From: Escherichia coli
Lineage (GTDB): Bacteria; Pseudomonadota; Gammaproteobacteria; Enterobacterales; Enterobacteriaceae
Assembly: GCF_016026235.1 (NCBI RefSeq)
Contig: NZ_CP065613.1
Length of the DNA stretch: 64,000 nucleotides
Strand: one strand, 5' to 3'
The notes beneath the pieces were generated by a model. It was not told the DNA's origin, did no database searches, and saw nothing but the letters and a program-made list of their open reading frames with translations. The position numbers and the translations under genes are program-made. Numbering within the stretch: position 1 is the first letter of the stretch; each line of letters starts with the position of its first letter. This document shows, one piece after another, positions 5,948 through 60,997 of the stretch.

Positions 5948-6016
5948 GGTATCCGCTGATTCGTTACGGTGAGAATAGCAAAAGGGCAGAGCCAGTGGCC
6001 CTGCCCTTATCAGTTA

Positions 6017-6931
6017 TCAGGCCTCAGGTTCCTGATCCGGTACCGGGGGTACCACTACGCCTTCACGCGGCGCTTCAGGATTCGGCGCTGGCAGATTCAT
6101 CAACTTCGCCAGAATGCTCGCCAGTTTCAGGCGCATTTCCGGACGACGGACGATCATGTCGATCGCGCCTTTCTCGATCAGGAATTCACTGCGCTGGAAT
6201 CCTGGCGGCAGTTTTTCGCGAACGGTCTGTTCGATAACACGCGGACCGGCAAAGCCGATTAACGCTTTAGGTTCAGCGATGTTGAGATCGCCCAGCATGG
6301 CGAAACTTGCAGAAACACCGCCCATCGTCGGGTCGGTCAGCACGGAGATGTACGGCAAGCCGCGCTCCTGCATTTTTGCCAGTGCCGCAGAGGTTTTCGC
6401 CATCTGCATCAGCGACATCAGTGCTTCCTGCATACGTGCGCCACCAGAGGCGGAGAAGCAGATCAGCGGGCAGTTATCTTCCAGCGCCTGCTCAACGGCA
6501 CGCACGAAACGTGCACCCACAACAGACCCCATTGAACCGCCCATAAAGGCGAACTCGAATGCCGCAGCGACAACCGGCATTCCATACAGAGTGCCTTTCA
6601 TCACCACCAGCGCATCTTTTTCGCCGGTTTCTTTCTGCGCAGATGCCAGACGGTCTTTATACTTCTTGGAGTCACGAAACTTCAGCACATCTTTCGGCTC
6701 AAGCTCGCTACCCAGCTCCACAAGGCTTCCTTCATCTAACAGGCTATGCAGGCGATTACGCGCTGTCATACGCATGTGATGGTCACACTTCGGACAGACC
6801 TCAAGATTACGTTCCAGCTCAGCGCGGTATAAAACCTGACCGCAGCTATCACACTTAGTCCACACCCCTTCAGGAATGCTCGCCTTGCGGGTGGGAGTAA
6901 TGTTGCTTTTAATTCGTTCAATCCAGCTCAT
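6017..6931 (-). CDS. accD: Acetyl-CoA carboxylase carboxyltransferase beta subunit
   Basis: Start set at the internal ATG (6931) giving [35 protein letters not shown]... with the Zn-ribbon CxxC..CxxC; 304 aa. Confidence 0.9.
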
Positions 6932-48112: not shown

Positions 48113-49651
48113 TCACCCAACGCCTTTCGCTGTAAACGGCGGTTTCGCAAACCACACCAAAACCGTAAGTAAGATAAAAGCAATAGCCGCCATACGGAAA
48201 ATCTCATTTGCAGAAATAGAAAGTGACTGCTGGGTTATTTCATTATTAATTTCATTAAGAACTCCTGAAAGCGAACCATAGTATTTATCCATAATTTGTG
48301 ACGATGAATTAAACACGGGGTTAAATTGATCGATGGTTGCTGTCAACTGACTATGGTGTAACGATTCGCGTCGTCCCCACAGCGTCATTGTCAACGACGT
48401 ACCAACGGATCCTGACAAGGTACGAAAAAAATTACTCATACTCGAGGCATTGGCAAATTTATTATCTGGCAAGCCTGAAAACGAAATCGTTGTTAAGGGT
48501 AAAAAGAAACAGGCAACGGCGAATCCCTGAAAAAACTGCGGCAAAATGATACCTGTAAAATCAATCGTTGGCATAAATGTCACAGAACGCCAGTAATAGC
48601 AAACCGCATACATCAAAAAACTAAATGTCACCAACACCCGCATGTCAATTTTGTTGCCATAACGTCCTATCAAAGGCGAAATCAATAGTGGCATGATGCC
48701 GATGGGCGCATAAGCAAGTCCGGCCCATATCGCATTATACCCCATCGTTTCCTGGAGTAACTGCGGCATAAGGACTATCGCTCCAGAGTAAAATAAATAC
48801 GCGCAGGTGATACTCACAATACCAATGGTGAAATTACGGGACTTAAACAAACTGAGGTCAAGAATCGGGTTCTCTGAGGTCGACTCCCAAATGACTAAAG
48901 AGATCAGAGAAATAACTGATACTACTGTTAATATTATTATTGTACTCGAGTTGAACCAATCCAGATCGCGCCCTTTATCAAGCATAATTTGCAAGCCACC
49001 AACACCGAGCACTAACAGGGTCAGTCCTGGTAGATTCATTTTGACCGGTGAAGTCTCAGTTTCTCTTCCTTTAAGTAAGGTTAAGCATAATGTCAGGACG
49101 ATAATCCCCATAGGGACATTGATTAAAAATATCCAACCCCAGCTAAAGTTATCGCAAATATATCCGCCTAATATCGGCCCACATATCGGAGCGATAATCA
49201 CGGTCATTGACCATAATGCCAGAGCAAATGTTCTTTTTTCTGGTGGATAATTCCTTAATAATAAACTCTGTGACAGTGGAATTAACGGCCCTGCCATTAA
49301 CCCCTGAACGACTCTAAAAAATATCAGCACATCAAGATTGGTCGATAAACTACACATTAATGAAGACAGCGAAAAAAAAGTGACTGAAAGTAAAAATAAC
49401 CTTAATTCGCCTATTCTTTGTGCCAGCCTGCCGGTAACAGGGATCGCAATGGCATTTGCTACGCCAAACGAGGTGATAACCCAGGTGCCTTCGTCTGTTG
49501 ATGCTCCCAGAAAGCCAGATATTGTCGGTATTGCGACGTTAGAAATAGTGGAATCCAACATTTGCATAAACGTCGCTAATGACAATGCAATAGTGACGCA
49601 CCATAACGTCCCACCGGTTAATGGTGCCGGAGTTGATTTAGTGATTGCCAT
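48113..49651 (-). CDS. emrY: MFS multidrug efflux pump (EmrB paralog)
   Basis: 512-aa 14-TMS-type ORF MAITKSTPAPLTGGTLWCVTIALSLATFMQMLDSTISNVAIP... Confidence 0.9.
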   Translation of the reverse strand: MAITKSTPAPLTGGTLWCVTIALSLATFMQMLDSTISNVAIPTISGFLGASTDEGTWVITSFGVANAIAIPVTGRLAQRIGELRLFLLSVTFFSLSSLMCSLSTNLDVLIFFRVVQGLMAGPLIPLSQSLLLRNYPPEKRTFALALWSMTVIIAPICGPILGGYICDNFSWGWIFLINVPMGIIVLTLCLTLLKGRETETSPVKMNLPGLTLLVLGVGGLQIMLDKGRDLDWFNSSTIIILTVVSVISLISLVIWESTSENPILDLSLFKSRNFTIGIVSITCAYLFYSGAIVLMPQLLQETMGYNAIWAGLAYAPIGIMPLLISPLIGRYGNKIDMRVLVTFSFLMYAVCYYWRSVTFMPTIDFTGIILPQFFQGFAVACFFLPLTTISFSGLPDNKFANASSMSNFFRTLSGSVGTSLTMTLWGRRESLHHSQLTATIDQFNPVFNSSSQIMDKYYGSLSGVLNEINNEITQQSLSISANEIFRMAAIAFILLTVLVWFAKPPFTAKGVG

Positions 49652-50814
49652 TAAAGTTGTCCATTATGCGAAATAATGTTGCTAATTTCTTTTTCTATCG
49701 GACTGGTATCGATAACTAAAGCCTTACTGGTATAAGCCGGCATGGACGTCACGGTTGAAGCCAGCTCAGGCATCTCAGCAATGTCTTCGTTCTTCGTATC
49801 AATAGTTGCAGTCATCGATAAACCAATGCGCAAGGGGTGTTCCATGAGTTCTTTTGGATCAAGAGAAACTTCAACCGGTACACGCTGAACGATTTTGATC
49901 CAGTTCCCTGTCGCATTTTGTGCAGGTAATAAGGAGAACGCATTGCCGGTTCCCATATTGATCCCTGTCACCCGGCCATGAAACACAACATTCTCACCAT
50001 AAAGATCGCTGATAATATTGACCGATTGACCAATCCGTACATCCGTGAGTTGTGTTTCTTTAAAGTTGGCATTAACCCACATTTGACGTGCTGGTACGAC
50101 AGCCATTAACGATTGTCCGGGACTCACTGTTTCGCCGACCTGAACACTTCGCTGGGCAATATAGCCGGTAACCGGACTCTTAATATCCGTACGTTTAAGC
50201 GCCAACCAGGCTTCTTTGGTTGCATCCGCAGCTTCAACGACTTGTGGCTGACGGTTTAATGGTGTGTTCATTACTAAAGCTTTATTCGCTTTATAAGCCT
50301 GGATAGCGGCATTCAATGCCGCTTTGCTACTTATTAACGTATCTTTGGTATGCTCCAGCGTTTCTTTTGAAATAACCCCCTGCTTCGCTAACGGCACACG
50401 ACGGTTATAATCTTCTAAAGATTGTTGATACTGAATACGTGCTGAAGCGACTTCGGCACTGTATTGTTTATCCTGTAAGTACAGTTTATTCGTTTGCCGA
50501 ACAATATTTGCCAGATTATTTTTAGCTTTATTGAGTGCGATAGTGGCATCAGTTTTATCCAGTGAAACTAAAATGTCACCCTGTCGAACGTAGTTTGTAT
50601 CTTTATGATTAACTACAGTGACACTACCTGAGACTTGTGCAGAAATTGGATCTGCATTCCCCGTGACATAGGCGTCATCTGTACTAATCATGTCTTCTAA
50701 TTCCATTGACCAATAGGCATAAGCACCTGAAAACGCAATAAATAAAACTATCGCCAATAAAGAAAAGTATTTTCTTCTGTTAGAATGTTTTTTATTTGAA
50801 TTAATCTGTTCCAC
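49651..50814 (-). CDS. emrK: Multidrug efflux membrane fusion protein (EmrA paralog)
   Basis: 387-aa ORF MEQINSNKKHSNRRKYFSLLAIVLFIAFSGAYAYW...; its stop shares position 49651 with the emrY start. Confidence 0.88.
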   Translation of the reverse strand: MEQINSNKKHSNRRKYFSLLAIVLFIAFSGAYAYWSMELEDMISTDDAYVTGNADPISAQVSGSVTVVNHKDTNYVRQGDILVSLDKTDATIALNKAKNNLANIVRQTNKLYLQDKQYSAEVASARIQYQQSLEDYNRRVPLAKQGVISKETLEHTKDTLISSKAALNAAIQAYKANKALVMNTPLNRQPQVVEAADATKEAWLALKRTDIKSPVTGYIAQRSVQVGETVSPGQSLMAVVPARQMWVNANFKETQLTDVRIGQSVNIISDLYGENVVFHGRVTGINMGTGNAFSLLPAQNATGNWIKIVQRVPVEVSLDPKELMEHPLRIGLSMTATIDTKNEDIAEMPELASTVTSMPAYTSKALVIDTSPIEKEISNIISHNGQL

Positions 50815-50987
50815 TATTATCTCTCATTTCGCATAGATGAAATTTATGAATTGAATGAAAAGAGTATTCATTCTTCATATCAAACACAGTGCATGTGTTG
50901 CACATTATCCCAGGAACGTTGGAGGCCTAATTTAAATGAGGTGCAAAAAAAACAACAGAGGACTAAACCGTGGCTTTTGCAATACAA

Positions 50988-51005
50988 TTCTTACGCCTGT
51001 AGGAT
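50988..51005. promoter_or_regulatory. Putative EvgA box in the emrK-evgA divergent intergenic region
   Basis: TTCTTACGCCTGTAGGAT resembles the EvgA inverted-repeat consensus TTCYTACA-NN-TGTARGAA. Confidence 0.45.
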
Positions 51006-51229
51006 TAGTGAGAAGACTTATAGTGCTAACTTGAAACTATAAATCATCGGTATAATCCCTGATTTTATTGTTGACATTTCATATATGCCGACTATTTATA
51101 TGGTATACTTGTCGAATTATCTTAAAGGAAGCTCAAATTTTCTTATTTTTATTGAGAAAATGAGATGATGCCTTATGTCTGTATTACTACAGGGAGAAGG
51201 GAGATGCTTCATTGCAAAGGGAATAATCT

Positions 51230-51844
51230 ATGAACGCAATAATTATTGATGACCATCCTCTTGCTATCGCAGCAATTCGTAATTTATTGATCAAAAACGA
51301 TATTGAAATCTTAGCAGAGTTGACTGAAGGCGGAAGTGCCGTTCAGCGGGTGGAAACACTTAAGCCTGATATCGTCATCATTGATGTCGATATCCCCGGA
51401 GTTAACGGTATCCAGGTGTTAGAAACGCTGAGGAAGCGCCAATATAGCGGAATTATTATTATCGTCTCCGCTAAAAATGACCATTTTTACGGGAAACATT
51501 GTGCTGATGCTGGCGCTAATGGTTTCGTGAGTAAAAAAGAAGGCATGAACAATATCATTGCGGCTATTGAAGCTGCAAAAAATGGCTACTGCTATTTCCC
51601 TTTCTCTCTCAACCGGTTTGTTGGAAGTTTAACGTCCGACCAGCAAAAACTCGACTCCTTATCGAAACAAGAAATTAGTGTCATGCGCTATATTCTTGAT
51701 GGCAAGGATAATAATGACATTGCTGAAAAAATGTTCATCAGCAACAAAACTGTCAGCACTTATAAAAGTCGCCTGATGGAAAAATTAGAATGTAAATCAC
51801 TGATGGATCTTTACACATTCGCACAACGTAACAAAATCGGCTAA
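51230..51844 (+). CDS. evgA: Response regulator EvgA (LuxR/FixJ family)
   Basis: 204-aa ORF MNAIIIDDHPLAIAAIRNLLIKNDIEILAELTEGGSAVQRVETLKPDIVIIDVDIPG... Confidence 0.93.
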   Translation: MNAIIIDDHPLAIAAIRNLLIKNDIEILAELTEGGSAVQRVETLKPDIVIIDVDIPGVNGIQVLETLRKRQYSGIIIIVSAKNDHFYGKHCADAGANGFVSKKEGMNNIIAAIEAAKNGYCYFPFSLNRFVGSLTSDQQKLDSLSKQEISVMRYILDGKDNNDIAEKMFISNKTVSTYKSRLMEKLECKSLMDLYTFAQRNKIG

Positions 51845-51848
51845 CCAC

Positions 51849-54800
51849 ATGAAGTTTTTACCCTATATTTTTCTTCTCTGTTGTGGTCTTTGGTCGACCA
51901 TAAGTTTCGCAGACGAAGATTACATCGAATATCGTGGCATCAGTAGTAACAACCGTGTCACACTTGATCCACTACGTCTGAGCAACAAGGAATTACGTTG
52001 GTTAGCGAGCAAAAAAAATCTTGTGATTGCAGTACACAAGTCCCAAACGGCTACGTTGTTGCATACCGATTCGCAGCAACGGGTTCGTGGTATTAATGCT
52101 GATTATTTAAATCTTTTAAAAAGAGCGTTAAATATCAAATTAACACTCCGGGAATACGCAGATCATCAAAAAGCAATGGACGCGCTGGAAGAAGGTGAAG
52201 TCGATATAGTGTTATCACATTTAGTTGCTTCGCCGCCTCTTAATGATGACATTGCTGCAACCAAACCACTGATAATTACCTTTCCGGCGCTGGTCACCAC
52301 CCTTCACGATTCAATGCGACCGCTTACCTCATCAAAACCAGTAAATATTGCTCGAGTAGCAAATTATCCCCCTGACGAGGTAATTCATCAATCATTTCCA
52401 AAAGCAACAATTATCTCTTTTACAAATTTATATCAGGCATTAGCATCCGTCTCAGCCGGACAGAATGATTACTTTATTGGTAGTAACATCATTACCAGCA
52501 GTATGATTTCCCGCTATTTCACTCACTCCTTAAATGTAGTGAAATATTATAACTCACCGCGTCAATATAACTTCTTCTTAACCAGAAAAGAATCTGTCAT
52601 TCTTAATGAAGTACTCAATCGATTTGTTGATGCTTTAACAAATGAAGTTCGCTATGAAGTATCACAAAATTGGCTTGATACAGGAAACCTGGCCTTTCTG
52701 AACAAGCCATTAGAACTCACTGAACATGAAAAACAGTGGATTAAGCAGCATCCCGATTTAAAGGTGCTGGAAAATCCTTACTCGCCCCCCTATTCTATGA
52801 CGGATGAAAATGGCTCGGTTCGGGGCGTTATGGGGGACATTCTTAATATTATTACCTTGCAAACAGGTTTAAATTTTTCTCCGATCACCGTTTCACACAA
52901 TATCCATGCTGGAACACAGCTGAATCCCGGCGAATGGGATATATTACCCGGTGCTATTTATAGTGAAGATAGAGAAAATAATGTTTTATTTGCTGAAGCC
53001 TTCATAACAACGCCTTACGTTTTTGTCATGCAAAAAGCGCCTGACAGTGAACAAACATTAAAAAAAGGAATGAAAGTTGCCATTCCATATTATTATGAGC
53101 TTCATTCGCAATTAAAAGAGATGTATCCGGAGGTAGAGTGGATAAAAGTCGATAACGCCAGCGCTGCATTTCACAAGGTCAAGGAAGGCGAACTTGATGC
53201 TCTGGTCGCGACACAGTTAAATTCACGTTACATGATCGACCATTACTATCCTAATGAACTTTATCATTTTCTTATTCCCGGCGTTCCGAATGCATCGCTT
53301 TCGTTCGCTTTTCCTCGCGGAGAACCGGAACTTAAGGATATTATTAATAAAGCACTGAATGCAATCCCCCCAAGCGAAGTTCTGCGCCTGACCGAAAAAT
53401 GGATTAAAATGCCCAATGTGACCATTGACACATGGGACCTCTATAGCGAGCAATTTTATATTGTTACGACATTATCCGTTTTATTAGTTGGCAGTAGCCT
53501 TTTATGGGGATTCTACCTGTTACGCTCAGTTCGTCGTCGTAAAGTCATTCAGGGTGATTTAGAAAACCAAATATCATTCCGGAAAGCGCTCTCGGACTCC
53601 TTACCGAATCCAACTTATGTTGTAAACTGGCAAGGTAATGTCATTAGTCACAATAGTGCATTTGAACATTATTTCACTGCTGATTACTACAAAAATGCAA
53701 TGTTGCCATTAGAAAACAGTGAATCCCCCTTTAAAGATGTTTTTTCTAATACGCATGAAGTCACAGCAGAGACGAAAGAAAACCGAACAATATACACACA
53801 GGTATTTGAAATTGATAATGGCATCGAGAAAAGATGCATTAATCACTGGCATACATTATGTAATCTGCCAGCCAGCGAACATGCTGTTTATATTTGTGGT
53901 TGGCAAGATATTACCGAGACGCGTGATTTAATTCATGCACTCGAAGTAGAGAGAAATAAAGCGATCAATGCAACTGTCGCAAAAAGTCAGTTTCTGGCAA
54001 CAATGAGTCACGAAATAAGAACACCAATAAGCTCCATTATGGGCTTCCTGGAACTTCTGTCGGGTTCTGGTCTTAGCAAGGAACAACGGGTGGAGGCGAT
54101 TTCACTTGCCTACGCCACCGGACAATCACTCCTCGGCTTAATTGGTGAAATCCTTGATGTCGACAAAATTGAATCGGGTAACTATCAACTTCAACCACAA
54201 TGGGTCGATATTCCTACTTTAGTCCAGAACACTTGTCACTCTTTCGGTGCGATTGCTGCAAGCAAATCGATCGCATTAAGTTGCAGCAGTACGTTTCCTG
54301 AACATTACCTGGTTAAGATCGACCCTCAGGCGTTTAAGCAGGTCTTATCAAATTTACTGAGTAATGCTCTCAAATTTACCACCGAGGGGGCAGTAAAAAT
54401 TACAACCGCCCTGGTTCACATTGATGACAACCACGCTGTAATCAAAATGACGATTATGGATTCTGGAAGTGGATTATCACAGGAAGAACAACAACAACTG
54501 TTTAAACGTTATAGCCAAACAAGTGCAGGTCGTCAGCAAACAGGTTCTGGTTTAGGCTTAATGATCTGCAAAGAATTAATTAAAAACATGCAGGGTGATT
54601 TGTCATTAGAAAGTCATCCAGGCATAGGAACAACATTTACGATCACAATCCCGGTAGAAATTATCCAACAAGTGGCGGCTGTCGAGGCAAAAGCAGAACA
54701 ACCTATCACACTACCTGAAAAGTTGAGCATATTAATCGCGGATGATCATCCGACCAACAGGCTATTACTCAAACGCCAGCTAAATCTATTAGGATATGAT

Positions 54801-55442
54801 GTTGACGAAGCCACTGATGGTGTGCAAGCGCTACACAAAGTCAGTATGCAACATTATGATCTGCTTATTACTGACGTTAATATGCCGAATATGGATGGTT
54901 TTGAGTTGACTCGCAAACTCCGTGAGCAAAATTCGTCCTTACCCATCTGGGGGCTTACAGCCAACGCACAGGCTAACGAACGTGAAAAAGGGTTAAATTG
55001 CGGCATGAACTTATGTTTGTTCAAACCGTTGACCCTGGATGTACTGAAAACACATTTAAGTCAGTTACACCAGGTTGCGCATATTGCACCTCAGTATCGC
55101 CACCTTGATATCGAAGCCCTGAAAAATAATACGGCGAACGATCTACAACTGATGCAGGAGATTCTCATGACTTTCCAGCATGAAACGCATAAAGATCTAC
55201 CCGCTGCGTTTCATGCACTAGAAGCTGGCGATAATAGAACTTTCCATCAGTGTATTCATCGCATCCACGGTGCGGCTAACATCCTGAATTTGCAAAAGTT
55301 GATTAATATTAGCCATCAGTTAGAAATAACACCTGTTTCAGATGACAGTAAGCCTGAAATTCTTCAGCTGCTGAACTCTGTAAAAGAACACATTGCAGAG
55401 CTGGACCAGGAAATTGCTGTTTTCTGTCAGCAAAATGACTAA
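51849..55442 (+). CDS. evgS: Hybrid sensor histidine kinase EvgS (periplasmic binding domains, HisKA/HATPase, receiver, HPt)
   Basis: 1197-aa ORF MKFLPYIFLLCCGLWSTISFADEDYIEYRGISS...; H-box SHEIRTPISSIMGF. Confidence 0.93.
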   Translation: MKFLPYIFLLCCGLWSTISFADEDYIEYRGISSNNRVTLDPLRLSNKELRWLASKKNLVIAVHKSQTATLLHTDSQQRVRGINADYLNLLKRALNIKLTLREYADHQKAMDALEEGEVDIVLSHLVASPPLNDDIAATKPLIITFPALVTTLHDSMRPLTSSKPVNIARVANYPPDEVIHQSFPKATIISFTNLYQALASVSAGQNDYFIGSNIITSSMISRYFTHSLNVVKYYNSPRQYNFFLTRKESVILNEVLNRFVDALTNEVRYEVSQNWLDTGNLAFLNKPLELTEHEKQWIKQHPDLKVLENPYSPPYSMTDENGSVRGVMGDILNIITLQTGLNFSPITVSHNIHAGTQLNPGEWDILPGAIYSEDRENNVLFAEAFITTPYVFVMQKAPDSEQTLKKGMKVAIPYYYELHSQLKEMYPEVEWIKVDNASAAFHKVKEGELDALVATQLNSRYMIDHYYPNELYHFLIPGVPNASLSFAFPRGEPELKDIINKALNAIPPSEVLRLTEKWIKMPNVTIDTWDLYSEQFYIVTTLSVLLVGSSLLWGFYLLRSVRRRKVIQGDLENQISFRKALSDSLPNPTYVVNWQGNVISHNSAFEHYFTADYYKNAMLPLENSESPFKDVFSNTHEVTAETKENRTIYTQVFEIDNGIEKRCINHWHTLCNLPASEHAVYICGWQDITETRDLIHALEVERNKAINATVAKSQFLATMSHEIRTPISSIMGFLELLSGSGLSKEQRVEAISLAYATGQSLLGLIGEILDVDKIESGNYQLQPQWVDIPTLVQNTCHSFGAIAASKSIALSCSSTFPEHYLVKIDPQAFKQVLSNLLSNALKFTTEGAVKITTALVHIDDNHAVIKMTIMDSGSGLSQEEQQQLFKRYSQTSAGRQQTGSGLGLMICKELIKNMQGDLSLESHPGIGTTFTITIPVEIIQQVAAVEAKAEQPITLPEKLSILIADDHPTNRLLLKRQLNLLGYDVDEATDGVQALHKVSMQHYDLLITDVNMPNMDGFELTRKLREQNSSLPIWGLTANAQANEREKGLNCGMNLCLFKPLTLDVLKTHLSQLHQVAHIAPQYRHLDIEALKNNTANDLQLMQEILMTFQHETHKDLPAAFHALEAGDNRTFHQCIHRIHGAANILNLQKLINISHQLEITPVSDDSKPEILQLLNSVKEHIAELDQEIAVFCQQND

Positions 55443-60979: not shown

Positions 60980-60997
60980 TTCTTACAACTGTAAGAA
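60980..60997. promoter_or_regulatory. Putative EvgA box upstream of frc (perfect palindrome)
   Basis: TTCTTACAACTGTAAGAA is an exact TTCTTACA-NN-TGTAAGAA inverted repeat, about 250 bp upstream of the frc start. Confidence 0.55.

Follow-up and report, generated by a model that had tools for sequence, protein, structure and literature searches.

The 18-mer TTCTTACGCCTGTAGGAT, read directly from the plus strand at positions 50988–51005 of the 64-kb stretch of DNA analysed here (the window), is very probably the operator through which phosphorylated EvgA activates emrKY from the emrK–evgA control region. On sequence grounds we regard it as a known EvgA operator that would mainly serve emrKY, and we take it to be identical with the mapped EvgA site, an assumption that draws on the sequence of the 18-mer and on what Masuda and Church (2003) reportedly found. 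The initial annotation had proposed an imperfect EvgA box between the divergent emrKY and evgAS operons, and the box was recovered at exactly that position, with two mismatches to the consensus and a weight-matrix score of 18.55 bits. It forms an imperfect 18-bp inverted repeat, TTCTTACG-CC-TGTAGGAT, without strand assignment, recognised from consensus, matrix and conservation, with half-sites at 50988–50995 and 50998–51005 separated by a central spacer at 50996–50997. When compared with the consensus TTCYTACANNTGTARGAA (TTCYTACA-N2-TGTARGAA), the mismatches are the G at position 8 and the T at position 18, and 14 of the 16 specified positions are matched. The two half-sites are symmetrical at only 5/8 positions, the outer base being asymmetric.

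The box falls within the 415-bp emrK–evgA gap, 173 bp upstream of the emrK start codon; the flanking genes were named from their open reading frames, from the RefSeq annotation of 100%-identical genomes and from Pfam. On one side of the gap, emrK (49651–50814, minus strand) encodes the membrane-fusion subunit of the EmrKY–TolC efflux pump, with HlyD/CusB adaptor domains, and is the first gene of the activated operon, followed by emrY (48113–49651). On the other side, evgA (51230–51844, plus strand) encodes a NarL/LuxR-type response regulator with Response_reg and GerE domains, and evgS (51849–55442, plus strand) encodes a hybrid sensor kinase. The genes yfdE, yfdV, oxc, frc, yfdX and ypdI are found downstream in the window. 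The 601 bp around the site are 100% identical to CB9615, RM12579 and others of the O55:H7/O157 lineage. A 9-codon leader open reading frame, evgL (MLHCKGNNL; 51204–51233, plus strand; b4781 in K-12), is apparent from the sequence, its stop overlapping the evgA ATG; translational coupling between evgL and evgA, and repression of evgL by CsrA, are reported in PMC11210196.

The initial annotation had also stated that EvgA activates emrKY, and published work agrees. Passages in PMC9496106, PMC8350985, PMC8174306 and PMC5706723, each citing Kato 2000, describe direct binding of EvgA to the emrKY promoter region; dependence of emrKY on EvgA has been reported (PMC6393483, PMC5706723, PMC8174306), and PemrK reporters need EvgA (PMC6393483). 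A full-text literature search for the 18-mer and the consensus strings returned unrelated primers only, and the phrase ‘EvgA box’ gave no match.

Matches to the consensus are strongly over-represented in the window. Three matches with at most two mismatches were found where shuffled sequences predict 0.03, all three at EvgA targets, and four with at most three mismatches where 0.57 are expected. A leave-this-site-out weight matrix, trained on only the five other EvgA boxes, ranked the emrK box third of 63,983 window positions; the first and second ranks are training sites, and the emrK box is the top non-training match in the 64 kb. Only 1 of 4.0 million positions in mononucleotide shuffles attained 18.55 bits, equivalent, as an order of magnitude only, to ∼1e-4 for each intergenic region and 0.016 in 64 kb. 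A functionless chance match to the consensus might be suspected from the two mismatches, the asymmetric outer base and the AT-richness of the intergenic region (29–36% GC). However, such an explanation has to accommodate the very low rate expected per gap, the concentration of matches at EvgA targets, and the conservation pattern described below, in which the box is retained while its flanks diverge and the variation sampled among E. coli genomes falls in the spacer. We consider it extremely improbable and, on present evidence, already effectively refuted. The matrix scan detected no second EvgA site in the emrK–evgA gap, the runner-up scoring 5.26 bits, so that by this measure the gap offers no alternative; the emrK box is the sole credible candidate EvgA box within it.

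Of 5426 complete E. coli genomes, 5397 contain the 50-bp stretch surrounding the box, and 4888 have an exact copy of the 30-mer at 50979–51008. Among the 5417 E. coli records that match the 30-mer, 525 do so with a single mismatch, and all three of these that were sampled carry a C to A change at box position 10, reading TTCTTACGCATGTAGGAT; this is base two of the central spacer, which the consensus leaves unspecified. The emrK–evgA 18-mer is identical in K-12, where it occupies 2,483,513–2,483,530. Two more diverged emrKY–evgAS loci were compared, one from the GTDB E. coli representative (L005; EvgA 97.5%, EmrK 95.9% and EvgS 93.7% identical) and one from a Yersinia vastinensis contig (L006; EvgA 93.6%, EmrK 83% and EvgS 84%). 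The former carries a perfect consensus, TTCTTACACCTGTAGGAA (2260–2277 of that locus), and the latter the box TTCTTACACGTGTAGGCA, both nearer the consensus than the box in the window. The perfect consensus in L005 implies that the box of the K-12/O157 type has been slightly weakened. A four-way alignment that includes the diverged loci reveals TTTGnAATACAATTCTTACnCnTGTAGG as an island of identity amid diverged flanks, and the emrK box thus appears to be conserved under selection relative to its surroundings.

Some of the loci recovered in these comparisons are of interest in their own right. The Yersinia vastinensis locus (NZ_CACVAF010000001.1, 571961–577572) comprises the whole emrY–emrK/evgA–evgS module near the end of a 590-kb contig and looks like horizontal transfer, and a 398-bp Rhizobium cauense contig (L010), which matches E. 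coli evgA at 100% identity, appears to be contamination. On a 102-kb plasmid (L089; NZ_AP027874.1, 15590–27619), evgAS lies between IS1 copies and emrK has been lost; the evgAS box there (6010–6027 of the locus) has a change in its core, TTCTTACGCATGCAGGAT, and a separate, strong EvgA box belongs to a YmgB/AriR-family gene near evgAS. The possibility that this gene is a yegR homologue was rejected, there being no similarity. Twenty plasmid places were found among E. coli genomes, and these occurrences suggest that EvgAS is a mobile module.

Further EvgA boxes lie elsewhere in the window, identified from consensus, matrix and PMC3720670 and likewise without strand assignment. A box of perfect consensus, TTCTTACAACTGTAAGAA, is located upstream of frc (yfdW) at 60980–60997, and upstream of yfdX there are two boxes whose centres are 38 bp apart, the proximal one (61974–61991) with three mismatches and the distal one (62012–62029) with one. 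The distal box also faces ypdI (62172–62447) and, on the plus strand toward that gene, is one mismatch from the extended register described below, a near-fit that suggests it may serve ypdI too. A consensus search of K-12 returned boxes upstream of safA, ydeP and yegR in addition to the identical emrK–evgA 18-mer. The genes with these boxes (safA, ydeP, yegR, frc and yfdX) were reportedly the direct EvgA targets in the 2003 study of Masuda and Church. Published papers name ydeP, safA–ydeO, yfdX and yfdWUVE as EvgA targets, and an EvgA site is described at every directly regulated gene (PMC4283999; PMC3720670 for yfdX and yfdWUVE); no published confirmation of yegR as an EvgA target was found in the literature examined.

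Six K-12 promoters, those of emrK, safA, ydeP, yegR and frc and that of the proximal yfdX box, share a longer pattern oriented toward the target gene, in which the box is followed by N8, CA, N15 and TCY. The CA is invariant at +9/+10 and the TCY occupies +26 to +28. On the emrK side, the CA is at 50979–50978 and a TCC at 50962–50960, within TTTAGTCCT, both on the minus strand, and the block at a fixed distance from the box (50960–50987, minus strand) is predicted from the shared register to contain the emrK core promoter, with a putative −10 element and start site. The downstream blocks read TCCTCTG at emrK, TCCTATT at safA and yegR, TCTTATT at ydeP, and TCTGATT at frc and yfdX. None of 2000 random-register controls matched the observed information content, and four sites in the window fit the box together with the register, against 0.22 expected. 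Both L005 and L006 retain the register on their emrK side, and it is also present at the promoter of the plasmid YmgB/AriR-family gene (4600–4654 of L089, minus strand), which was not used in deriving the pattern. On the side of the box that faces evgA the register is absent, the bases there being AG at +9/+10 and TTG from +26. To our knowledge, a shared downstream register of EvgA-box promoters has not been described before.

A convincing −10 hexamer could not be assigned within the conserved downstream block, as no register gives a good match to TATAAT in all six promoters. The hexamers at +21 to +26 (TTTAGT, ACCAGT, CAGAGT, TATAAT, CTCTCT and TGCTCT) are weak, that of emrK being TTTAGT and that of yegR TATAAT. 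If TTTAGT (50967–50962) is the emrK −10 element, the box centre would lie at −41.5, the classic position of class II activators, and emrK transcription would start near 50955, or about 2,483,480 in K-12; given the weakness of this −10 candidate and a start site that is itself deduced, the class II position is tentative.

Proteins of the LuxR/NarL family recognise related short inverted repeats, and TACGCCT in the box agrees with 6/7 positions of the NarL heptamer TACYYMT, so a site for another member such as NarL, RcsB, GadE or UhpA deserves consideration. This attribution is very unlikely: the full 18-bp pattern and the downstream register match specifically those of the other EvgA-target promoters, emrK induction is reported to be lost in an evgA deletion in which the box is intact, and a passage in PMC8174306, citing EcoCyc, states that emrKY and ydeP have no common regulator except EvgA.

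The evgA core promoter region was placed at 51071–51116 (plus strand) from the sequence and from published leaders. It comprises a −35 element TTGACA (51071–51076) and a −10 element TATTTA (51093–51098), with an extended −10, TGGTATACT, at 51101–51109 ahead of the start at 51116. A published leader construct starting TACTTGTCG (124-nt leader, PMC11052181 supplement) points to an evgA start at 51106, and the 114-nt evgA leader of PMC11210196, where a sigma-S promoter start was chosen over a sigma-70 promoter start, points to a sigma-S start at 51116. These starts would put the centre of the box at −109.5 and −119.5 from the evgA starts. It is conceivable, though in our judgement doubtful, that the box works in both directions as a shared operator and, in addition to its role at emrKY, drives positive autoregulation of evgAS from ∼110–120 bp upstream, perhaps by cooperative spreading of EvgA toward the evgA promoter, as for BvgA in Bordetella. 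Such an arrangement would be consistent with there being no other EvgA-type site in the gap, and Masuda and Church are said to have counted evgAS among the directly induced operons. Further support comes from emrK-less loci with EvgA homologues (Klebsiella, Hafnia and Buttiauxella; 66–71% identity), in which the best matrix match lies upstream of the evgA homologue, the Klebsiella and Buttiauxella loci having an identical 18-mer, TTCCTACAGCTGTCATCC; these box-like elements make an ancestral autoregulatory role plausible.

Several observations argue against a bidirectional operator. The box is distant from both evgA starts, its evgA-facing side is without the CA/TCY register of the six activated promoters, and the evgA promoter has a consensus −35 element and should thus need no activator. 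Constant EvgS levels are reported in PMC8174306, and a passage there, citing Eguchi 2003, states that evgAS is not autoregulated; evgA of the wild type does not respond to mild acid (PMC11210196), and evgA expression in macrophages does not change significantly while emrK is strongly induced (PMC6393483). The initial annotation had referred to ‘known autoregulation’, wording that is overstated in view of the contrary statement in PMC8174306; a passage in PMC11210196 describes EvgA as ‘reported to be autoregulatory’, and the literature on evgAS autoregulation is split. A measurable role of the box at evgA in E. coli seems to us rather unlikely.

A stricter reading would make the box a one-directional operator dedicated to emrK, embedded in a longer fixed-register EvgA promoter pattern common to all EvgA-activated promoters, with the box having no autoregulatory effect on evgAS in E. 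coli and the site probably derived from an ancestral autoregulatory site. We offer this reading tentatively, as less likely than not. If it is true, the pattern would predict new EvgA promoters, for example that of the plasmid ariR-like gene.

Other elements of the gap were noted. A terminator-like hairpin, GTGCAACACATGCAC, with a T-rich tail at 50889–50903 (minus strand) lies in the presumed emrK leader; a functional role was rejected, as L005, a diverged locus, does not preserve its stem and the hairpin is thus probably not functional. The stretch TCCCAGGAAC (50908–50917), also in the emrK leader, is near-invariant when the gap in E. coli is compared with that on the Yersinia contig, with one substitution in L006, and GAAACTATAA (51033–51042), between the box and the evgA promoter, is invariant across these versions. 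A generic sigma-70 scan of the gap gave a single weak minus-strand match (51091–51062), below the shuffle count; since it also missed the literature-derived evgA promoters, the scan is uninformative.

Returning to the reading that we favour, in which phosphorylated EvgA activates emrKY from this box, a mechanism can be outlined. Mild acid and alkali metals would activate EvgS, leading to phosphorylation of EvgA. NarL/FixJ-family proteins bind as dimers to inverted repeats, and an EvgA dimer would be expected at 50988–51005, one of the inverted half-sites being TTCTTACG and the other the complement of TGTAGGAT. The box would abut the emrK −35 region or stand in for it, its centre falling near −41.5 if TTTAGT is the −10 element, and bound EvgA could recruit RNA polymerase directly at the adjacent emrK core promoter in a class-II-like manner, giving leftward transcription of emrKY. 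Both the precise position of the emrK start and the class-II-like mode of activation are deduced from the geometry. Mutations in EvgA-box half-sites have reportedly been made for ydeP and b1500 and are not known for emrK.

Descriptions of the 18-bp EvgA motif and of the control of emrKY by EvgA date back about two decades, and by its consensus match, position and conservation the emrK box belongs to this already known family. The practical value of the analysis lies in correct annotation of the emrK–evgA control region in a genome of the O55/O157 lineage. The mildly new points are two: the shared downstream register, the strictness of which could sharpen prediction of the EvgA regulon, and the geometric case for an emrK-directed box, which by favouring emrK over evgA bears on the question of evgAS autoregulation.

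The emrK box resembles its sisters at safA–ydeO, ydeP, yegR, frc (yfdW) and yfdX in being an 18-bp inverted repeat of the form TTCYTACA-N2-TGTARGAA, and in the degenerate outer bases of its promoter-distal half-site (AT at emrK, TG at safA and AG at ydeP). It differs from them in being the weakest primary box (18.6 bits compared with 21–26), in the innermost base of its proximal half-site, G rather than A, and in its location, as the only box with the operon of the regulator itself on one side and a target operon on the other. Among characterised proteins, the homologue nearest to EvgA would be BvgA of Bordetella, whose sites at fha, bvg and ptx are inverted heptads TTTCCTA with a half-site core, TTCCTA, that overlaps the EvgA TTCYTA. 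BvgA promoters combine a far-upstream high-affinity site with cooperative low-affinity sites that extend up to the −35 region, whereas emrK has a single box that apparently abuts the core promoter, and no BvgA-type arrays were found in the window. The emrK box is also similar to NarL 7-2-7 sites and to class II sites near −41.5, in that a dimer with a GerE/LuxR-type helix-turn-helix would engage an inverted repeat with a 2-bp centre adjoining or overlapping the −35 region; unlike the NarL 7-2-7 sites, it has a different recognition sequence, and its placement at −41.5 is deduced from a weak −10 candidate.
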